IMG/VR virus record: IMGVR_UViG_3300046321_000078
Direction: 5' to 3' (one strand)
Length of the DNA stretch: 20,000 nt
Origin: an uncultured virus (IMG/VR IMGVR_UViG_3300046321_000078)
Lineage: Duplodnaviria > Heunggongvirae > Uroviricota > Caudoviricetes
Positions 1,904 through 20,000 of this stretch are shown here, in pieces (position 1 is the first letter of the stretch; each line of letters opens with the position of its first letter). A program made the translations under genes and the position numbers. The notes beneath the pieces are model-generated. The model did no database searches. It had not been told where the DNA came from and saw only the letters and a program-made list of their open reading frames with translations.

Positions 1904-2277
1904 AAATTTTCCCTATACTTATCAAACATTTTAGCTAATCTGTGTTCTGGATTTATTCTTTTCATGTAAGCTGAGAACTCCAACATTGTCATATCTGATT
2001 TCATTCTATTACAATCCCAACAACAACCCGCTATATTAAATTCGGTATACCCTTTTTTGTTATTCAATCTATCAATACCTAATTCATTTTTTCTACCATC
2101 GAGTCCACAAATATAACATTTAGCTGTAATTAGTGAATAGAATCGTTCAAATGATATTAAAAACTTTAGACCTTTAAACTTAGCTCTTTTTTTATATTCA
2201 TCAAATTTATCACAATATTTTAAAAATAGATTAGTCTCAATGCCAACAATATCTTCAAATTTTTTAAGTTGATTCAT
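1900..2277 (-). CDS. HNH/His-Me finger endonuclease-like zinc-binding protein
   Basis: CYICG...GIDRLNNKKGY...NIAGCCWDCNRMK: two CxxC pairs around a beta-beta-alpha-Me-like motif, with DR where DH is usual. Confidence 0.75.
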   Translation of the reverse strand: MNQLKKFEDIVGIETNLFLKYCDKFDEYKKRAKFKGLKFLISFERFYSLITAKCYICGLDGRKNELGIDRLNNKKGYTEFNIAGCCWDCNRMKSDMTMLEFSAYMKRINPEHRLAKMFDKYRENL

Positions 2278-3083
2278 TACAATTCCTCCAATGCTTTCTT
2301 ATTCTTGTTTAAACTATAATTTAAGTACTGAGACATGTCAAGTATTGTCTTAAATATATTAAGGGTTGCGTGAACCCGTTTAACCAGATGTTCGGTATCA
2401 GCATCATTGTTATAATTTGATACAAGTTTTAAACCATACTTAATTTTAATCTCTTCCTTATATCCCTTTGTTTCATGTTCATCAGTTGCTTTGTTTTTTC
2501 GCATAATTGGAGCTTGTATCACTTGTTTACTTAATATAGCTGGATATAGTTGTACTCTATCACCCTCCTGAACATGAATATTAGCAATAGCATCGTATAC
2601 CTCAGTTTCATTTCTACGTATTTTCTTATCTAAGATGTCCTGTTCAACATAACCTTTACAGTTAAGTATTGGCTTTGTTATTGTTGCTTTCTTTGACCAT
2701 TGCATTATGTCAGTTGGAGCTTTAGCCATTTTTACATATTTCTTATATATAACATCAATATCTTCTAGTCTATGTTCAATCAAAGCTTTTACAATTTCTT
2801 GTATCATGTCTTTCATAATACTTTCAGTCTTTAGGGACTTCATGCTTGAACCTTTTATTTTTAACGTACCTTTATCATCTAGCATAATATAATTTTTAGC
2901 TTTAACAACAACAAAAGATGGAAAATATCCATCATGCTCAAATTTAATATTTTCTGGATATAGGGAGTTTAGCTCGTCCAATAAGAAATCCTGTTCATCT
3001 TTAGATATAACACTACCATCAGCTTTAGAGAAAGTAATACTATCCGTATCACAGTTGATGAGTGTAAAATTATGTGTCTTCAT
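2277..3083 (-). CDS. Family B DNA polymerase, C-terminal part (motif C palm plus thumb)
   Basis: Begins MKTHNFTLINCDTDSITF (motif C DTDS), then KAKNY and LKIKG. ATG 3083 follows a GAGGA SD-like sequence and overlaps the end of the upstream pol ORF. Confidence 0.88.
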   Translation of the reverse strand: MKTHNFTLINCDTDSITFSKADGSVISKDEQDFLLDELNSLYPENIKFEHDGYFPSFVVVKAKNYIMLDDKGTLKIKGSSMKSLKTESIMKDMIQEIVKALIEHRLEDIDVIYKKYVKMAKAPTDIMQWSKKATITKPILNCKGYVEQDILDKKIRRNETEVYDAIANIHVQEGDRVQLYPAILSKQVIQAPIMRKNKATDEHETKGYKEEIKIKYGLKLVSNYNNDADTEHLVKRVHATLNIFKTILDMSQYLNYSLNKNKKALEEL

Positions 3084-4767
3084 TTTCTTCTTCCTCAACT
3101 TTAGGATTTATCTCTTGATATGTTTTACTCGTTGCCCATAGTATACTCTTCTCCAGCACTTCGCGTCCATATCTAGTAACACTACTTCCCGCATCCATAT
3201 CGTTGAAGTTAAGACCTTTTGTTGTTAGGAAACCGTATGAACTGTTAATAAATATTTTTTGGGTTCCTTGTAAATCATCATAATATTTATCTCCAGTTAT
3301 TTTGGCAAGTTTTTTATTTTCAAATCGCTGTAGAGTAAAGTATTCCAACATCTTTAAAAAATTACCTAGATAGTCAGATGCAGGTTTAACTTCGTATTGT
3401 CTCATGATACTTGGATAGAGAGATGAAACATCGACTTTCATTGCGTTCTTATACAGTCCAGGATTACCGTAACTAATCGCACCTTGAAACTCTGATGTTT
3501 CTTGTCCCTTTGGTATTGACCATCCATCCTGTAGATAGCTGCGTACTATTAAGCTATTAATCTGTCCGCCAGTGTTTGTTTCTGTTACTATTTGAAATGG
3601 TTTAGGTATATATGCAGTAATTAAGAAAAACGGTGTAGCCATCAAATCAAATAGTTTTATCGGATCTTCACTATCGTCGATACAATACTGACAAATATCT
3701 TTACGTTTATTTAAATCAAACCAGTCATCTTTAATTTTAGAAGCATCATAGTGTGTTCTGCCTTCTTTTTCTAGTCCCTCAACTTTAATTACAGATTTAA
3801 GAGCATAGCTATCATATTTCTTTGTCGCCTGATCAGCTTTCAGTGTGACAATCCACATATCCACAATATCTCTTCCCCATACTTCAGGACGTTGATAGTC
3901 ATACTCTTGACTACCATCTTTACGTATCTTCCTGGGTGTTCGTCTATTTTCTAGAGCAAGTGATGATCCATCTCTTCCAATATTAATATTAAAATCATGT
4001 TTATTAGCAATTCCTAATAGGTAAGGAATGTCAAATAAATAAATATTATATCCAGTTATGATACTTGGATTCTTTTCCATAACCCATTTAGCCCAGGCTT
4101 GAATTAATTCCTTTTGTGAAGAATAATTATCCTCAGAGAAAAGCTTACGCTCATACTTATCATTATTTCGATAAGTACTACCAATGCATAGAACCTTAGC
4201 CTCCGATGCTGCCGGATCTATTGATGTAGTCTCTAAGTCAAATGATAAAATTGAGACATCTTTTAATTTTAAATTCTTATAGTATGTTATTCCTGTATCA
4301 ATCATAAATGATTCAACATTATTAGGAATAAAGTAAAAGTCATTCTTGTATAGTTTAGGCTTTATATCTTTAAATTCATTCTCTGAATAGTACTTTCGAT
4401 ACCTGTAGTGACCAGGCCCCTTTAGTTTATCAAATGAAGTGTTAACTTTACTAGGTGATAAAACAAACTGTTTGAATGTTTGCTTTTGCTCAGATATAAT
4501 ACCTAAATGTTCTTTAAATATATGAATATTATTATTTTTATACGCGATATTAACTATATTGGTTTGTTTATCTTTACCATTGATAACATCGTCAATTTTA
4601 GCCGGTAATAATGAATTAACTGAATTATATATATCAAACTCTATATCTTGACCATTCATTGTTCCATATATAGTATTATTAATTTGTTTTTTGATTTTCA
4701 ATGTACCATCATCTAAACATGATACATATTCATTAATAGATTCACTAGTATCTAATATATATTTCAA
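3070..4767 (-). CDS. Family B DNA polymerase, N-terminal part (3'-5' exonuclease, motif A, fingers/motif B)
   Basis: ExoI SFDLETT, ExoII GYNIYLFD, ExoIII YCIDD, motif A DVSSLYPS, motif B KIFINSSYG, VTRYGRE; no DTDS. TTG start with GGAG RBS. Confidence 0.93.
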   Translation of the reverse strand: MKYILDTSESINEYVSCLDDGTLKIKKQINNTIYGTMNGQDIEFDIYNSVNSLLPAKIDDVINGKDKQTNIVNIAYKNNNIHIFKEHLGIISEQKQTFKQFVLSPSKVNTSFDKLKGPGHYRYRKYYSENEFKDIKPKLYKNDFYFIPNNVESFMIDTGITYYKNLKLKDVSILSFDLETTSIDPAASEAKVLCIGSTYRNNDKYERKLFSEDNYSSQKELIQAWAKWVMEKNPSIITGYNIYLFDIPYLLGIANKHDFNINIGRDGSSLALENRRTPRKIRKDGSQEYDYQRPEVWGRDIVDMWIVTLKADQATKKYDSYALKSVIKVEGLEKEGRTHYDASKIKDDWFDLNKRKDICQYCIDDSEDPIKLFDLMATPFFLITAYIPKPFQIVTETNTGGQINSLIVRSYLQDGWSIPKGQETSEFQGAISYGNPGLYKNAMKVDVSSLYPSIMRQYEVKPASDYLGNFLKMLEYFTLQRFENKKLAKITGDKYYDDLQGTQKIFINSSYGFLTTKGLNFNDMDAGSSVTRYGREVLEKSILWATSKTYQEINPKVEEEENEDT

Positions 4768-5305: not shown

Positions 5306-5311
5306 TGTTAT

Positions 5312-5340
5312 AATATATCAGGTTTTCTGTGTATTGTCAA
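5312..5340 (-). promoter_or_regulatory. Sigma70-type promoter
   Basis: TTGACA (5340-5335), 17 bp spacer, TATATT (5317-5312). Confidence 0.8.
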
Positions 5341-5345
5341 CAAAT

Positions 5346-5369
5346 AAAAAAGGGACAATTACGTTGCCC
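5346..5369 (-). terminator. Probable intrinsic terminator
   Basis: GGGCAA-cgtaa-TTGTCC hairpin (one G-U pair) followed by C and TTTTTT on the minus strand. Confidence 0.6.
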
Positions 5370-5589
5370 ACTCGGTTCACTTAAAATACGGTAGAACTCC
5401 CGCTATAGGTGGTGCGCTATTACCACTTCCTTGTACTTCGGAGCTAGAAAGACCTTCGTCACTTATATGACATGTTCGGCATGTTTCAAAGGAGAGGAAG
5501 TCTCAGTTCTAGTCTATGCTATTTCCAGATGCTCGAGTTTAGCTTATTATCACTTCCTGAACAGCACCAGCTTACACAGCTCTATAGAT
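5370..5589 (-). ncRNA. Putative structured non-coding RNA, family unknown
   Basis: No credible ORF, GC-richer than the flanks, nested stems: TGCTGTT-CAG/CTG-AATAGCA, CTAGAA/TTCTAG, CCTTTG/CGAAGG, GTCA/TGAC, GTGGT/ACCAC, CTATAG/CTATAG; ends at a terminator. Confidence 0.5.
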
Positions 5590-5844
5590 TTAAGATTTCA
5601 TTGGGGGTAATTTTGATACCTCATAAGTTTTCCAATCAGGAACAGAACTTAAGCGTTCTTCAGCTTTAGCTGCTGTTAAGAACCCTCGCTGCTCTAGTCC
5701 TTTAATTACATCTGCTGGTTTTTCTAAAATAAGCTTATCGCCCTTCTTTAAAACCATATCCTGTTCAACGGTAATAATAGACTTACCTGTTTTTGATTTA
5801 GACACATATCCAACTTTTCCAGCTGGTAACTTAAATTCGCTCAC
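5590..5844 (-). CDS. Hypothetical protein
   Basis: Start moved to GTG 5844 after an AAGGAG RBS; 84 aa. Confidence 0.7.
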   Translation of the reverse strand: MSEFKLPAGKVGYVSKSKTGKSIITVEQDMVLKKGDKLILEKPADVIKGLEQRGFLTAAKAEERLSSVPDWKTYEVSKLPPMKS

Positions 5845-7292: not shown

Positions 7293-7667
7293 CTATCGTT
7301 TTGGTTTATTCATACCGCTTAAAGGTAATCCGTTTAATACTCTAGCAATAGCTTCTTGACATCTAGCCTGAGCAACAGCCTTACTAGATTCTGATCGTAC
7401 AACACTATTGATTCGACATTCATTTGTTTGAGGGTTATATAATACTTCAGTTACATCCCACTTACCATGCTCATTTTTATTTACACCAAAAGATTGTTGC
7501 CACTTTGTTGTAGTATCTGCTAGTTTAGCTAAAGTATCTTTATGTGTTTCCATTACTTTCTTAGCTGCTTCTTTAAAATCTTCTTTTTTCTTTACTTCGA
7601 TAGTAGAGGAAGCTTCTTTTAAAAGAGCCTCTAACTCATCGTCCTCAAACACATTATTCTTTGCCAT
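7293..7667 (-). CDS. Hypothetical protein
   Basis: 124 aa, AAGGAG RBS, TAATG overlap. Confidence 0.75.
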   Translation of the reverse strand: MAKNNVFEDDELEALLKEASSTIEVKKKEDFKEAAKKVMETHKDTLAKLADTTTKWQQSFGVNKNEHGKWDVTEVLYNPQTNECRINSVVRSESSKAVAQARCQEAIARVLNGLPLSGMNKPKR

Positions 7668-10970: not shown

Positions 10971-11225
10971 CTAGTGAAGTGTTTCAAAGTCCTTGTAGTC
11001 TTCTTCTGTTATATAAAACTCTAATAATAATTTAATTCGACGGTCTTCAAAAGCTTCTTGAATAACGTACCTACTATACTTCCATTGCAAATCTACCGCC
11101 ACATTTGTTAGAACATAGTCATCGAAGGTCAAGTGGCTTCCAGCTTGCTCATATCGTTCGGCTAGTTTTGTTATGCTGTGAGCTATGTGGTCAGCAATAA
11201 AATAAATATCGTCTTCTGTTGTCAT
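10971..11225 (-). CDS. Hypothetical acidic protein, probably leaderless
   Basis: 84 aa; ATG lies 6 nt after a -10 box. Confidence 0.7.
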   Translation of the reverse strand: MTTEDDIYFIADHIAHSITKLAERYEQAGSHLTFDDYVLTNVAVDLQWKYSRYVIQEAFEDRRIKLLLEFYITEEDYKDFETLH

Positions 11226-11369
11226 TCAATTACTATGCCACATATTTGCGGATTTGTCAAGTATAATCCACCGATGAGTGAATGGTATGAATAAGTTAGT
11301 GCCTGAAACTAAAACTAAGTTATTTTCTAATACACCAATCTGGTCATAATGGTAACTATATACTAACAT
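11226..11369 (-). CDS. Hypothetical protein, 47 aa
   Basis: Manually translated MLVYSYHYDQIG...WHSN; AAGGA RBS. Confidence 0.5.
   Translation of the reverse strand: MLVYSYHYDQIGVLENNLVLVSGTNLFIPFTHRWIILDKSANMWHSN
11232..11260 (-). promoter_or_regulatory. Sigma70-type promoter with extended -10
   Basis: TTGACA (11260-11255), 17 bp, TGgCATAGT, 6 nt, ATG 11225. Confidence 0.75.
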
Positions 11370-11370
11370 T

Positions 11371-11580
11371 TTATTCCTTTGTCTCAAGTCCTAGAGTTTT
11401 ATCATCATGATCTAAGTAATACTCACCGTCTTTGTCTTGTCTTAACTGCACACTATTATCATTTATTTCAATGTAAGGATCTGAGTGTACTATTTTTATG
11501 TCTCTAAATTCTCCATCTTTGGTGTACTGTCTTATGTAAGAATTTCCGTCCATATTTAGTAGAATTCCTTTTATTTTCAC
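11371..11580 (-). CDS. Hypothetical protein
   Basis: 69 aa, GTG start abutting the upstream stop. Confidence 0.65.
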   Translation of the reverse strand: MKIKGILLNMDGNSYIRQYTKDGEFRDIKIVHSDPYIEINDNSVQLRQDKDGEYYLDHDDKTLGLETKE

Positions 11581-12345: not shown

Positions 12346-12789
12346 TTAAAATTCGTAACCTAATCCAAATAATAATCCAGAACCTCTAGTGACGTCTAGT
12401 CCAATAAGGGGAGTTATACCATTGTCGAATTGATACTGATAAATCAAAGATGGTATATATCCAGTTTCAACTACGCCTTCTGCTATTTGTGTTGATCCTG
12501 ATGTAAAACTTTTGGCCCTTACATCAATCACGCTTTTGTGTCCGAGAATGGAAATAATATGTTTTTTAATCTTAGTCACTTCTTTAGTAGTTTCAATTGT
12601 TTCTATTTTTGTAATGACTACCGGCGGAGACTTTAGTTGTTTTTTAAGTCTAGCAATTTCAGAATATGCGTTTTTTAACCGTTCATCGCAGGTCTTTACC
12701 GGATTACATTGATATTCGGTATCGCCATCTTTTATTGTTTTACCGAAGCTTAGTGTTGACAGTAGTGTTATTAGTATTAGGTATTTCAT
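12346..12789 (-). CDS. Exported protein with C-terminal outer-membrane beta-signal
   Basis: Signal peptide MKYLILITLLSTLSFG, short coiled coil, alternating C-terminal strands ending GLLFGLGYEF. Confidence 0.65.
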   Translation of the reverse strand: MKYLILITLLSTLSFGKTIKDGDTEYQCNPVKTCDERLKNAYSEIARLKKQLKSPPVVITKIETIETTKEVTKIKKHIISILGHKSVIDVRAKSFTSGSTQIAEGVVETGYIPSLIYQYQFDNGITPLIGLDVTRGSGLLFGLGYEF

Positions 12790-13734: not shown

Positions 13735-13867
13735 GTGCAAAATCTAAAATATCTGAATCATCCATAACTCTTAAATCTTCTAATTGTTCTTCTGATAAAG
13801 CAAAACCATCTACTACCCACCGATAAACTTGACTGATCGGTAGTTGTCTTAGTTCGTTCTTTGACAT
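13718..13867 (-). CDS. Small acidic protein, 49 aa
   Basis: Perfect AAGGAGGT RBS; MSKNELRQLP...DILDFALDLCD; not in the ORF track. Confidence 0.65.
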   Translation of the reverse strand: MSKNELRQLPISQVYRWVVDGFALSEEQLEDLRVMDDSDILDFALDLCD

Positions 13868-14909: not shown

Positions 14910-15061
14910 AATTCTACCACTTTTTCATCTCCATGCTGATCAACCCATACTTGATACTCACTACCATCTTTACTTAAATATTGATAGTAGTGTACCCATA
15001 ATCCCTCTCCTTGTAAAGGATTATCGCAGATAAAAATATCAGTCTTATCATTTTTATACAT
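14906..15061 (-). CDS. Hypothetical protein, 51 aa
   Basis: Manually translated MYKNDKTDIF...EKVVEL; ATGA coupling. Confidence 0.5.
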   Translation of the reverse strand: MYKNDKTDIFICDNPLQGEGLWVHYYQYLSKDGSEYQVWVDQHGDEKVVEL

Positions 15062-15071
15062 TTCTTGGTAC

Positions 15072-15302
15072 TTATCCACAATGACTTCCTTTGTCTATTT
15101 TTATCTTAGATATCTCTAAATTACCATAACTACACCCAACAGTTGAGTACAACCATTGACTATCTCCACACTTCTGTACTTTTTCGAACTTTCTATTTCC
15201 CTTTTGTCTATTAATTTCAGCTTGAGCTAATTCGAATTTTGAAAATATACCCAATATAGTTCGATCGCTTTCTAGATCTTCAGTAACTAAAAATACATTC
15301 AT
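15072..15302 (-). CDS. Hypothetical phage protein
   Basis: MNVFLV...ILGIFSKFELAQ pattern common in small phage proteins; GAGG RBS. Confidence 0.7.
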   Translation of the reverse strand: MNVFLVTEDLESDRTILGIFSKFELAQAEINRQKGNRKFEKVQKCGDSQWLYSTVGCSYGNLEISKIKIDKGSHCG

Positions 15303-15303
15303 A

Positions 15304-15492
15304 CTAATCGTCCTCTTTAATTATTTTTTTTAAATAATTATAATCGTCATCTGTTAGTTCGACAAAGTGTACCATAGTAAAATAATGAATTAATGCTAAT
15401 GTTATGGCTAATGGTGGATTGGCAAAGAATGCAACTAATGTAATGACCGGTGAGTAAACAATTAGGTAAGAAATAATAATTATAATTATCAT
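15304..15492 (-). CDS. Small membrane protein
   Basis: Two hydrophobic segments; GGAG RBS. Confidence 0.65.
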   Translation of the reverse strand: MIIIIIISYLIVYSPVITLVAFFANPPLAITLALIHYFTMVHFVELTDDDYNYLKKIIKEDD

Positions 15493-15692
15493 AACATGTC
15501 TCCTATTGCTAGTATTTTGTTTTTAATTGTAAATACTTCTAAAACGTAACCATTGATTAATTCTGCCATATATTTTGCTGATTGTAAAGTGGCGTATGTA
15601 CGAATTATGTTATCATCTTTGTCTACATGAGCATATTCTAGAGATGCTGACGTAAAACTTGTTGGTTGTGATGTTATATCCTTTATGTTCAT
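15489..15692 (-). CDS. Hypothetical protein
   Basis: 67 aa, AAGG RBS. Confidence 0.65.
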   Translation of the reverse strand: MNIKDITSQPTSFTSASLEYAHVDKDDNIIRTYATLQSAKYMAELINGYVLEVFTIKNKILAIGDML

Positions 15693-15693
15693 G

Positions 15694-16059
15694 CTAACCT
15701 TTACAACAAGCTGATACTATAATAGAAAGAATAGTTTCATAGTGGTTGATATTCTCATATACGGCTGGGATATTTGGTTTAAAGAATCTGCGTATTTTTG
15801 GTGTTTTAAGTAGACGTTCTGTTTTTAAAATAACTTGGCGAGTGCTATCTTCCACTTTAAAACCTAAGGCTTTGAGTTTTTTAACATGAGAAGTATTAAA
15901 ATCTATACGACCATAGTAAGGATCTAAGGTACAGTGTTGCCAATCAAAACAACACGACCCTCCGTTGCTTACTACAGCATTTATCATCTGTTTAATTGTG
16001 TCATCAAAGTTCTTAGCCTTAAGTCTTTTTACTTCTTTACAAACAGCTTTTGCATTCAT
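15694..16059 (-). CDS. Hypothetical protein
   Basis: 121 aa, GAGGTG RBS, directly downstream of a promoter. Confidence 0.75.
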   Translation of the reverse strand: MNAKAVCKEVKRLKAKNFDDTIKQMINAVVSNGGSCCFDWQHCTLDPYYGRIDFNTSHVKKLKALGFKVEDSTRQVILKTERLLKTPKIRRFFKPNIPAVYENINHYETILSIIVSACCKG

Positions 16060-16077
16060 TTATCACCTCTTGTTTAT

Positions 16078-16106
16078 AGTTTATATCGTTATACTCGTGT
16101 TGTCAA
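16078..16106 (-). promoter_or_regulatory. Sigma70-type promoter (leftward member of a divergent pair)
   Basis: TTGACA (16106-16101), 17 bp, TAAACT (16083-16078). Confidence 0.75.
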
Positions 16107-16113
16107 TAACTAC

Positions 16114-16142
16114 TTGACAAATTTGTTATTATGTGTCATATT
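16114..16142 (+). promoter_or_regulatory. Sigma70-type promoter (rightward member of a divergent pair)
   Basis: TTGACA (16114-16119), 17 bp, TGtCATATT (16137-16142). Confidence 0.65.
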
Positions 16143-16148
16143 GATAAC

Positions 16149-16430
16149 GCTTCAGAACATCGAAGCTATGATCAGACACTTGGAACGTCAACAACCGGTA
16201 TTTACTTAGTGATGAGTTTATATCGAACTAGACCGACTATCAGGGATACCTGCGGTTTGTGAGGAATGCGTCTTAGAGGAAGCTCTCACCGTGTAACAAC
16301 TGTTCTGATCGAGACTATAAGGTTCTATGGAAATATTGAGACGTGAGATATCTCTATGTAGTAAATAGAAAACCGAAAGCCTTAGTTACAGAGTAACTAT
16401 AGCCATAGGTACGTCCAAAACGTATCATTA
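16149..16430 (+). ncRNA. Putative structured non-coding RNA, family unknown
   Basis: Starts at the expected +1 of the rightward promoter; no RBS-led ORF; stems GCTTC/GAAGC, GATCAGA/TCTGATC, CGGT/ACCG, CAGG/CCTG, GTGAG/CTCAC, CTATGG/CCATAG, TAGTTAC/GTAACTA, TACGT/ACGTA. Confidence 0.55.
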
Positions 16431-16431
16431 T

Positions 16432-16710
16432 TCAGGGTATTATGTCAGTAAGATCTGCTTCTCCTACGGAAACATCATATCCTAGTTTTTTATAAATAGA
16501 AACTATGTGTCTACTTAATATTATTTCAGAAGGGCCTTTAATGACTCCATCTGATAACAACTTAGAGATAAATCTAGTTGCTATGCCTTGTCTTCTATGT
16601 TCTTTATGTATGTTAATACTGAACAGACTATTATTGTGAAGACTATATGCACCTACGATAACACCATTTTCTGTAATAGCAATTTCTGGTGGGGATGAGC
16701 ATAGATTCAT
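16432..16710 (-). CDS. Small GNAT-family acetyltransferase
   Basis: INIHKEHRRQGIATRFI (acetyl-CoA motif A, R/QxxGxA) and IYKKLGY; AGGAGG RBS. Confidence 0.8.
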   Translation of the reverse strand: MNLCSSPPEIAITENGVIVGAYSLHNNSLFSINIHKEHRRQGIATRFISKLLSDGVIKGPSEIILSRHIVSIYKKLGYDVSVGEADLTDIIP

Positions 16711-16726
16711 AGTTCCTCCTATTCGT

Positions 16727-16755
16727 ATTATCGCACGGGTTGCTTTATAAGTCTA
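16727..16755 (-). promoter_or_regulatory. Sigma70-type promoter for the GNAT gene
   Basis: TAGACT (16755-16750), 17 bp, TGcGATAAT (16732-16727). Confidence 0.65.
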
Positions 16756-16856
16756 CAATAAAAATAGTCCGGCTGTATAGAACTACAATCCTATTTCCGA
16801 TTTAATTATCATTACAAACTCAATAGGTATCTTAAGCATAAAAATTACATAAAGCA

Positions 16857-16924
16857 ACGTTAATATGAGACTGTCTCAATTAGATACGAATTATAATGAT
16901 ACATATCCTGTTTCATAATGATAA
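16857..16924. repeat. Array of imperfect 15-bp palindromes (GTNTCA-N3-TGANAC-like)
   Basis: ACGTTA-ATA-TGAGAC 16857-16871, GTCTCA-ATT-AGATAC 16873-16887, GAATTA-TAA-TGATAC 16888-16902, GTTTCA-TAA-TGATAA 16910-16924; includes the perfect TGAGAC-T-GTCTCA. Confidence 0.5.
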
Positions 16925-16932
16925 TAGATTAG

Positions 16933-17208
16933 TTAATGTCTAACAATATCAGATAGATAGAATGTTGGGTTTTTTCCCGCATAGTTACCATAGATTAAGC
17001 CTTGTTGTTCCATTTTATACAATTCAAGCATTGCAGCATCTCTGTCAACGCTCTCTGGATATAACTTCAAGTATTCAACTTGTGATATATAACCCTGTTC
17101 TGTAATGATTTCATATGAACTAATTATTGGTTTTAGTTGATCTTTTTTCAAATTGCACCTCGTAATGATTGTCTGTTGTTCGTGGCTGGCGTTGCATATA
17201 AAGAGCAC
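16933..17208 (-). CDS. Hypothetical protein, possible winged helix; true start may lie downstream
   Basis: RDAAMLELYKMEQQGLIY resembles a wHTH; the 5' end overlaps the next ORF. Confidence 0.55.
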   Translation of the reverse strand: MLFICNASHEQQTIITRCNLKKDQLKPIISSYEIITEQGYISQVEYLKLYPESVDRDAAMLELYKMEQQGLIYGNYAGKNPTFYLSDIVRH

Positions 17209-17323
17209 CTTTGCATGTTGGGCAAGTAGTACCGCCTAACCTAGTCTTAAGAATATATTTGCCTGCCTTGGGCGAGCATGACGAGCTATCACAGAACCCG
17301 ACAATGATATATTTATTTTTCAT
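17120..17323 (-). CDS. Small zinc-ribbon protein
   Basis: CDSSSC and CPTCK cysteine pairs. Confidence 0.55.
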   Translation of the reverse strand: MKNKYIIVGFCDSSSCSPKAGKYILKTRLGGTTCPTCKGALYMQRQPRTTDNHYEVQFEKRSTKTNN

Positions 17324-17441
17324 AAGTAATCACCAAAAGAGTTAAGGCAACGGCATTCAATAATACATAAGGCATTACTGGATGGAAAACAATACAAGCC
17401 ATATTAGCGATTATTAAAAATACTGTGATAGTATTATGCAT
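17313..17441 (-). CDS. Small membrane peptide
   Basis: Start moved to ATG 17441 after GGGAGG; two hydrophobic stretches. Confidence 0.55.
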   Translation of the reverse strand: MHNTITVFLIIANMACIVFHPVMPYVLLNAVALTLLVITYEK

Positions 17442-17634
17442 AAACAACCTCCCCATTAAATTCATAATTATAAAAATCAGATGATGCCATTTTTTCAATC
17501 AGCTCAACGTTAGCACTTAGTGGGCTAGCTTGATCAAACATTTCAACATCCTGCAATGTATCGAATAAATCAAGTCTGGCTATTAGTTGAGCCTGTGGAG
17601 TCAATTCATTATATTTAAATGTCTTCATTTTCAA
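17434..17634 (-). CDS. Hypothetical protein
   Basis: 66 aa, GGAGG RBS; FKYNELTPQAQ. Confidence 0.65.
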   Translation of the reverse strand: MKMKTFKYNELTPQAQLIARLDLFDTLQDVEMFDQASPLSANVELIEKMASSDFYNYEFNGEVVYA

Positions 17635-17788
17635 GGGCCTCCATTTTGTTTTTTAGTTTCAAAAGTTCGTCGTTTAATAGATCCTCTCGAAATTGGTTGC
17701 AGACATTAAGCTCACGTCTGATAGATTCAAGATTATCGTTAAGCATATCTAGCTTTTTTAATTTGTCAGATAATTCTTTTATTGTCAT
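17615..17788 (-). CDS. Small coiled-coil protein
   Basis: Likely start ATG 17788 (MTIKELSDK...). Confidence 0.6.
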   Translation of the reverse strand: MTIKELSDKLKKLDMLNDNLESIRRELNVCNQFREDLLNDELLKLKNKMEALENEDI

Positions 17789-17854
17789 TTTACACCCGCC
17801 ACAACAAAGCAATATAAATAAAACCCCAGTATTATGACTAATATAAGCATCATG

Positions 17855-18169
17855 CTATACCCTTTTCCCTAATTGTTTTAATTTTGACTCTGTTTGGATT
17901 AAAATGTTTCCTGTGCTTCTATAAACTGACTCCATTTTATCACCCCAAATATCGTTTTGACCATAGGCGCATCTACCGATCAACTGATTCAAAAAACTCG
18001 CTGTATTATTCTGCATTTCAATAATTTCCAAAAGTTGTGAGATTGTCTTGGCACTAATTAAATGTTGATATTCTGCACCGTCGATGTAATCAGCAGATTT
18101 TTTCATAGGCTCATCAAACTCTGTCAATTTCTTTTTTAATTCTGTAAAGTCAATCATGCTATACCTCAC
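17855..18169 (-). CDS. Hypothetical protein
   Basis: 104-aa ORF; the start may be the internal MIDF after GAGGT. Confidence 0.7.
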   Translation of the reverse strand: MRYSMIDFTELKKKLTEFDEPMKKSADYIDGAEYQHLISAKTISQLLEIIEMQNNTASFLNQLIGRCAYGQNDIWGDKMESVYRSTGNILIQTESKLKQLGKRV

Positions 18170-19566: not shown

Positions 19567-20000
19567 CTATCCTGCTTTCTTTAAATATTTTAGAGTATTC
19601 TTTACAGTAACTAATAAATATTGCAAATCAAAATCAGTATAGCCGTTGTTTTTTCCGTCTATTAAGTATCTAGCTAAAAAGTCTTTAAAGCTTGTATACT
19701 CTTTACAGCCTATGATAATAAAACTCGAGTTGATAGTTATTGAAAAGTTAAAGCCTATAATATTAATAAGGTCTCTTCTTGATTTTGTTTGCATTTTTAA
19801 AGAAACCCTAGCATCGCCAGAAACCCTAGCATCGCCAGAAACCCTAGCATCGCCAAAAACCCTAGCATCGCCAAAAACACTAGCATTGCCAAAAACACTA
19901 GCATTGCCAGAAACACTAGCATCGCCAAAAACCCTAGCATTGCCAAAAACACTAGCATTGCCAAAAACACTAGCATCGCCAGAAACACTAGCATCGCCAA
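19567..20000 (-). CDS. Hexapeptide-repeat (left-handed beta-helix) protein, 5'-partial
   Basis: The frame reading G[D/N]A[S/R]V[S/F] repeats continues as ...GDARVS-LK-MQTKSRR in frame into the 19567-19794 ORF; C-terminal IIIGC motif. Confidence 0.85.
   Translation of the reverse strand, partial: GDASVSGDASVFGNASVFGNARVFGDASVSGNASVFGNASVFGDARVFGDARVSGDARVSGDARVSLKMQTKSRRDLINIIGFNFSITINSSFIIIGCKEYTSFKDFLARYLIDGKNNGYTDFDLQYLLVTVKNTLKYLKKAG
19801..20000. repeat. 18-bp coding tandem repeat, about 11 copies visible
   Basis: Unit a[g/a]aaac[c/a]ctagcat[c/t]gcc repeats to the window end. Confidence 0.95.

Follow-up and report, generated by a model that had tools for sequence, protein, structure and literature searches.

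The stretch of DNA analysed here, called the window throughout, is 20,000 nucleotides long and comes from an uncultured phage whose DNA is AT-rich, with about 30% G+C (IMG/VR record IMGVR_UViG_3300046321_000078). All of its ORFs of at least 125 aa lie on the minus strand, hereafter the gene strand, and the genes so oriented include those for a family B DNA polymerase, an exonuclease and an Erf-like protein. Within this block is a non-coding gap of 372 nt (positions 16060-16431), bordered on one side by the start of a 121-aa ORF (15694-16059, minus) and on the other by the stop of a GNAT-like ORF (16432-16710, minus; 92 aa, Pfam Acetyltransf_10 at 4.5e-06 over profile positions 35-110 of 128). 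A first-pass annotation had placed in this gap a standalone structured RNA of about 280 nt, transcribed rightward from its own promoter. The 21 sequencing runs listed as containing window DNA were all freshwater metagenomes, and no RNA run was among them.

One homologous locus was found, in an IMG/VR contig of 81,942 bp that is 98% complete (L003, the same contig as L032 and G001). Comparisons are therefore between the window and L003 only, which limits the case for a plus-strand RNA. The L003 exonuclease is 77% identical to that of the window, and gene order around the locus is common to both. Two other IMG/VR contigs, L002 and L004, are distant relatives of the window phage; protein searches with the two flanking genes, a 299-aa protein, the exonuclease and a two-sequence alignment of a 67-aa protein returned L002, L003 and L004 only. 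A search with the promoter pattern found the L003 contig only, and BLAST of the gap against the whole records of the three relatives found the promoter block in L003 (G001) only. The block pattern GAGACTATA-N60-90-CTATAGCC matched 101 stretches in IMG/VR, 100 of them unrelated by eye and one being the L003 contig. A stricter block pattern gave four matches in metagenome contigs, none with a BLAST match to window 15000-18000 and all unrelated by eye, and one in a genome contig, an archaeal MAG, which was taken as a chance match without comparison to the window. The exonuclease search of genome contigs found nothing, a distant DNA search with the 372-nt gap gave no match in 50,697 phage records, and a 21-mer from the first domain of the proposed RNA had no match in IMG/VR. 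Covariance model R1 recovered L003 itself and, beyond it, a single 14-bit match (E 1.5) at a non-syntenic place in G002. Strain contigs from the freshwater runs contained no variants inside 16100-16440, only loose ends.

Several features lie elsewhere in these genomes. For the family B DNA polymerase ORF (window 2277-4767 region, 565 aa), the profile match is restricted to positions 21-419 of 856, and a 273-aa ORF without family match overlaps it downstream; the polymerase gene may have been split or hit by a frameshift. Two ORFs of the minus strand, 16933-17208 and 17120-17323, share 89 nt in different frames, and their L003 homologues (1349-1543 and 1458-1733) overlap likewise. An 18-nt unit repeated 11 times with 93% matches occupies window 19803-20000, inside minus-strand ORFs, and continues past the window end; it may encode a protein repeat of 6 residues or represent a series of iterons. 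Window 5306-5670 is a second place where plus-strand activity is possible. Small ORFs of the plus strand (5431-5610 and 5472-5669) occur there together with terminator-like hairpins at 5407-5428 (plus) and 5369-5353 (minus), and the minus strand has a strong promoter (5340-5312, 11/12 with TG). The gene strand of L002, a 94.5-kb contig, encodes a full-length tmRNA (3279-3655, +; Rfam 98.7 bits) with the tag peptide AESNDFAFQNAA as given by ARAGORN. L002 also has a tRNA-Ser at 12633-12704.

Two sigma-70-type promoters stand back to back at the left end of the gap, as had been proposed. The leftward one, which serves the 121-aa gene, reads TTGACA-17-TAAACT (16106-16078, minus; 10/12 in the scan), and its L003 counterpart, TTGACA-17-TAGAAT, scores 11/12. 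The rightward one (16113-16142, plus) consists of TTGACA at 16114-16119, a 17-nt spacer and the extended -10 box TGtCATATT; it scores 10/12, and likewise in L003, also with the extended TG. The two -35 boxes form the palindrome TTGTCAA-N7-TTGACAA inside a divergent-promoter block (16100-16144) that is identical to L003 3089-3044 at 43 of 46 aligned positions. No other non-coding stretch of the locus is as well conserved between the two phages, and the rightward promoter itself is identical at 30 of 31 positions. The flanking proteins, by comparison, are 55-78% identical, a difference in favour of a plus-strand RNA.

The hexamers, the 16-18 nt spacing and the conservation in a relative that characterize sigma-70-type promoters are thus all present at the rightward site. 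It also has in common with a gene-strand site at 11232-11261 a motif of 20 positions, CTTGACAAAT-N8-ATGTGnCATAnT, and that site is itself conserved, its L003 counterpart at 7579-7608 departing from the motif at 2 positions. The motif occurs at two sites per 20-21 kb in each phage versus 0.00-0.01 expected, which again speaks for a plus-strand RNA; as the pattern was built from the two window sites, its independent check consists of the L003 sites only. Being conserved in L003 and having its motif in common with a second conserved promoter, the rightward promoter looks real, as judged from these comparisons. Its predicted start, G16149, is the first base of GCTTC...GAAGC, as first described. 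The statement that this was the only convincing plus-strand unit was too strong, since the scan lists further plus-strand TTGACA sites at 13861 and 7247. At the gene-strand site 11232-11261, which overlaps the stop of ORF 11226-11387, the -10 box ends 7 nt ahead of the start codon of ORF 10971-11225; this suggests that the mRNA of the latter ORF is leaderless or has a very short leader.

The gap is non-coding. It contains no gene-strand ORF of at least 40 aa, stop codons being found throughout all three gene-strand frames, and a plausible plus-strand ORF was not found either. In the conserved block at its right end, the plus-strand ORFs (13 and 12 codons) have no similarity between the window and L003 by eye. 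Reading TGA as Trp was rejected, because window genes in general get no longer under this recoding. ARAGORN, which does detect the tmRNA of L002, found no tRNA or tmRNA gene in the window or in L003, and this class was rejected, in line with the first description. Rfam 15 gave no match at gathering score in the window, so the locus stays unclassified as initially stated; at E ≤10 there were two matches to unrelated families in the window (16.7 and 18.6 bits versus cut-offs of 55 and 63) and six in L003 1750-3150, all far under their cut-offs. The locus contains GACUAUA...UAUAGCC, which we take to be reminiscent of P7 of group I introns. A group I intron was nevertheless rejected: Intron_gpI gave nothing on either strand at E ≤10, and exons are lacking, conservation stopping at the promoter and at 16443.

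Base composition sets the locus apart. G+C is 0.41-0.44 at 16150-16350 versus about 0.30 in flanking DNA, and GC skew on the proposed RNA strand is +0.16 to +0.27 in the window. The excess of G over C on that strand, found in both the window and L003, agrees with a plus-strand RNA, as does the fact that both compact genomes keep at least 260 nt of non-coding DNA here, with G+C above that of the surroundings.

The folding energy of 16149-16430 is lower than that of shuffled sequences on the plus strand (z -2.29, with 4 of 200 shuffles as good) and close to it on the minus strand (z -0.38). For the first domain alone (16167-16316) the values are -2.40 and -0.60, again to the advantage of a plus-strand RNA. 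A control scan of 76 stretches of 280 nt, taken on both strands of the first 5.4 kb of the window, had a mean z of -0.10 (sd 1.04), and one of the 76 reached -2.29 or less, which tells against the RNA reading. A fold better than chance is thus weakly supported, the plus-strand signal being modest and only mildly unusual. A clear plus-strand terminator was not found in the window by the terminator scan, another point against a plus-strand RNA.

In the minimum-energy fold, a 5' hairpin GCUUC-8 nt-GAAGC (16149-16166, plus) lies at the predicted start. It is followed by a domain (16169-16311, plus) closed by a long-range helix, P1, which pairs 16169-16176 with 16304-16311 and holds three hairpins (16177-16303), one with a GUGA loop. 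Of the helices first proposed for this part, GCTTC/GAAGC, GATCAGA/TCTGATC, CAGG/CCTG and GTGAG/CTCAC are recovered in this fold, and CGGT/ACCG is missing. In the second domain, TAGTTAC/GTAACTA and TACGT/ACGTA are recovered; the helix CTATGG/CCATAG, supposed to close it, is missing from the fold and has no counterpart in L003.

The layout is alike in both phages, with a 5' hairpin and then a P1-closed domain. The hairpin at the 5' position in L003 is another, longer one. The P1 strands are UGAUCAGA with UCUGAUCG in the window and CGAUUAG with CUAAUCG in L003, so that the helix is kept through a double change (C-G to U-A) and a one-sided change (U.G to C-G), in support of a plus-strand RNA. The local copy of P1 in L003 forms 9 pairs in the minimum-energy fold; by hand arithmetic, the chance of finding a 7-nt complement within 330 nt is about 0.02-0.1. 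The interiors of the two P1 domains could not be aligned between the window and L003, and the sequence of the first domain is not conserved. Nor does the L003 counterpart have an energy signal: its 331-nt 5' region gave z -0.13 in the RNA sense and 0.12 on the gene strand, the first 148 nt of this region gave -0.17 and -1.26, and the region without its inserted cassette (see below), joined by script, gave 0.06 and -0.58. This absence on either strand counts against a plus-strand RNA, and the idea of a ~280-nt fold conserved as one unit does not survive the comparison.

Between the promoter block and the conserved 3' block, the window has 162 nt, and L003 has about 330 nt of non-coding DNA plus two gene-strand ORFs, an HNH_3 endonuclease ORF (153 aa, 7.4e-07) and a 74-aa helix-turn-helix ORF. 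These ORFs lie in a 912-nt segment (L003 1984-2903) flanked by an 8-nt direct repeat, GCTAATCG, at 2903-2896 and 1991-1984. A promoter-like TTTCCA-17-TATAGT stands directly ahead of them at 1953-1981. Cassettes with a free-standing HNH homing endonuclease are known from intergenic regions of phages, and the L003 locus with its HNH_3 ORF corresponds to them. The proposed RNA would be antisense to this cassette, which is encoded on the gene strand. An intron was rejected, there being no group I model match and no conserved exons. As the cassette separates P1 from the 3' block, the L003 RNA would either reach about 1.2 kb or be split, which argues against a plus-strand RNA.

At the other end of the gap, gene-strand homology with L003 breaks off at 16934 and is found again from 16443. 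L003, in which the GNAT protein has no match, lacks the GNAT gene, and so do strain variants, whose contigs diverge at 16425/16440 and 16784/16795. The GNAT-like ORF is thus, by these comparisons, an insertion and no part of the RNA element. As it is missing from both L003 and the strain variants, the RNA locus exists without it, and the suggestion of a GNAT-linked regulator is refuted, the L003 contig being nearly complete. The insertion comprises the ORF and the 222-nt gap before it (16432-16932), contains a promoter-like site with TG at 16755-16727, and looks like a moron.

The conserved 3' block (16305-16443) is 139 nt long and 64% identical to L003 1990-1857 (140 columns), and its homology ends at 16443, where the GNAT insertion starts. 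Invariant islands are ATCGAGACTATA, GAAAGC and CTATAGCCrTAGGT. RNAalifold finds conserved pairing on both strands of this block: the plus-strand consensus has 22 pairs, 7 of them changed on both sides, and the gene-strand consensus 23 pairs, 9 changed on both sides, with no pair broken in either. Slid controls gave 0-1 pairs changed on both sides, a control that favours the consensus structures, as these were derived from the two sequences being tested. The 3' block shows compensatory changes relative to its one homologue; all of this covariation comes from two sequences, with structures derived from those two, which counts against a plus-strand RNA, and the strand is ambiguous.

To compare the strands, columns were shuffled. 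The plus-strand consensus had z -2.33 (12 of 500 shuffles as low) and the gene-strand consensus -3.71 (0 of 500). In the identical column-shuffle test, 36 coding alignments of the window phage with L003 had a mean z of -0.24 (sd 1.18); three of these controls reached -2.33 and none reached -3.71. The gene strand of the block therefore has the stronger signal, and the plus-strand value falls within the coding controls, which counts against a plus-strand RNA. The additional gene-strand signal comes from a hairpin, T1, and a 4-pair outer helix.

T1 (16378-16404, minus) reads GGCUAUAGUUAC-UCU-GUAACUAAGGCU and is followed by a U-rich tail (16377-16363), UUCGGUUUUCUAUUU. By reading, the stem comprises 11 pairs, 4 of them G-C, and is interrupted by one mismatch. 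The hairpin pairs in both the window and L003, with 2 double changes, and its G.U pairs would be A.C on the plus strand. Part of what had been described as the second RNA domain is thus better accommodated by the gene strand, where it makes a terminator-like hairpin. T1 is likely the terminator of the upstream leftward operon. It resembles an intrinsic (Rho-independent) terminator in being a hairpin followed by a U-rich stretch, 20 nt past a stop codon and kept in relatives; unlike classic ones, its stem is AU-rich with an internal mismatch, its U tract is interrupted, and it was not listed by the terminator scan of the window.

Two other elements of the block are plus-strand structures. The helix P2 (16311-16316 with 16378-16383) has two G-C to G.U changes, which preserve pairing on that strand alone and so favour a plus-strand RNA. 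An alternative hairpin, Pd (16393-16412, plus; GUAACUAU-AGCC-AUAGGUAC), overlaps T1. Among its 7 pairs there are 1 double change and 2 one-sided changes, U-A to U.G, and the latter keep pairing on the plus strand only. In L003, Pd is followed by GCCUUUUU; the window has no U run there.

The hairpin at 16323-16370 belongs to the consensus folds of both strands. Its helices, Pa (16323-16327 with 16366-16370) and Pb (16334-16339 with 16353-16358), can pair on either strand; between the window and L003, 6 of their 10 pairs are changed on both sides and none is broken, which we count for the plus-strand RNA. They enclose an internal loop (16328-16333 and 16359-16365) whose cores, GAAA and AGUAA, do not differ between the two phages. 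On the plus strand only, this loop reads GAA opposite AGUA, the sarcin-ricin consensus AGUA/GAA (PMC1865062), and this also favours a plus-strand RNA. Like sarcin-ricin/loop E (bulged-G) motifs, the locus loop lies between covarying helices in the correct orientation, GAA 5' and AGUA 3', in both phages, and its flanking positions can form A-U and G.A pairs. The likeness is a sequence match to a short motif, noticed after the fact, which lowers its weight for a plus-strand RNA. We refer to 16323-16370 as the S-turn hairpin. S-turn motifs are usually docking sites for a protein or another RNA. On the gene strand the same loop is made of pyrimidines, in which we know of no motif.

Tentatively, and somewhat short of an even chance in our judgement, we read the locus as the place where the end of the upstream leftward operon, marked by T1, and a rightward non-coding RNA converge. 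A strong host-type promoter would drive a small non-coding unit in the direction opposite to that of all neighbouring genes, with its start at about 16149. We infer both the synthesis of this RNA and its end point from sequence features. The RNA would consist of the 5' hairpin, the P1-closed domain, whose interior varies by phage, and the conserved 3' hairpin at 16323-16370; its conserved parts would be the promoter, helix P1 and the S-turn hairpin. The S-turn hairpin would work on the plus strand, its loop serving as a docking handle, and the RNA might then act by binding a protein or RNA partner. It would collide head-on with the end of the upstream leftward operon, T1 overlapping its last hairpin. 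Further, it could act on the upstream transcript as an antisense RNA to its 3' end.

The conserved structure may instead serve the gene-strand transcript. The 3' block would then be a 3'-end module of the upstream operon, in which another hairpin and an enclosing helix accompany T1 and its U-rich tail; what remains of the gap would serve as a spacer where insertions gather (GNAT in the window, the HNH cassette in L003). Transcription from the rightward promoter might occur, and its transcript would have no fold-dependent role, amounting at most to convergent or antisense transcription. We regard this as somewhat unlikely. In its favour are a gene-strand z of -3.71, reached by none of 500 shuffles and beyond all 36 coding controls, with 9 of 23 pairs changed on both sides, and the G.U pairs of T1 and of the outer helix that would be A.C on the plus strand. 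T1 lies 20 nt past the GNAT stop codon, and a third strain variant, read by hand from a 30-letter contig end, keeps a T1-like hairpin with a different 3' arm. The 5' bodies of the two phages are moreover unrelated in sequence, and that of L003 lacks an energy signal. However, the terminator scan lists nothing at T1, whose U tract is interrupted, and a spacer of at least 260 nt would be unusual in such tightly packed genomes. It also leaves unexplained why the rightward promoter is the best-conserved piece (30/31 positions), why P1 is kept with a double change, and why the GAA/AGUA loop is conserved, the gene strand offering there pyrimidines that match no motif we know of.

That the 3' block could be the decaying remnant of a small gene-strand gene, and the gap a scar of mobile-DNA traffic, seems very unlikely to us, even though a 61-aa ORF spans the block in L003 and a similar in-frame peptide, TYGYSY...AF.F, is found in the window directly past the GNAT stop. 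The frame is kept for about 19 codons in the window, in L003 and in the third variant (a contig loose end), four differences within this stretch are synonymous, and the GNAT gene and HNH cassette indicate that the site accepts insertions. Yet the window has two in-frame stop codons, one variant, read from a contig loose end, has no start codon, and differences by codon position (17, 10 and 16 of 37 each) show no third-position excess. The 61-aa ORF has no homologue among the proteins of 33-107 aa and no Pfam match, and six paired double changes are not expected under neutral decay. More remote in our estimate is a transcription-activated replication origin, at which the rightward G-rich RNA would stay on its template as a primer. 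By analogy, ColE1 RNA II and phage T4 origins work with primer RNAs; the promoter here is strong and conserved, the RNA strand has more G than C (skew +0.16 to +0.27), and replication genes (DNA polymerase, exonuclease, Erf) lie in the same gene block. On the other side, no iterons or tandem repeats are present in window 15900-17300, and past the 3' block there is no conserved AT-rich unwinding stretch, the downstream sequence differing between variants.

The converging non-coding RNA that we prefer has partial parallels among known phage RNAs. The oop RNA of phage lambda, one of several convergent small RNAs of this sort in phages, is 77 nt long, ends at a strong terminator and overlaps cII. 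Like it, the candidate would be a short opposite-strand unit in a one-directional gene block, with its own host-type promoter, facing the 3' end of an upstream gene; unlike it, the candidate is about 280 nt long and without a clear plus-strand terminator, and the gene it faces varies (GNAT in the window, none in L003). The phi29 packaging RNA, GOLLD and ROOL, all in Rfam, are phage-borne structured ncRNAs with their own promoters, as proposed here. The window phage, however, has a genome of about 82 kb and is not phi29-like, the locus matches no Rfam family at gathering score, and the candidate RNA is far smaller than GOLLD or ROOL.

Taken from the sequence, the locus is a modest, unproven ncRNA candidate, of which part of the proposed fold is kept in L003. 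We consider it unlikely, and raise it as a speculation, that it represents a new family of modular phage small RNAs, in which a conserved promoter and an S-turn protein handle would be joined through P1 to a domain swapped between related phages, each domain aiming the handle at another partner, as a decoy, scaffold or guide. The present value of the locus is that of a lead, from two sequences and a predicted transcript. It also carries a caution, as part of an apparent single RNA fold is better read as a terminator of the opposite strand. To our knowledge, phage ncRNAs other than tRNAs are few, and their function is mostly obscure. If the reading is true, the locus would add a tractable case from phages that are abundant in freshwater, namely an RNA driven by its own promoter and combining a recognizable protein-docking motif with a swappable domain.
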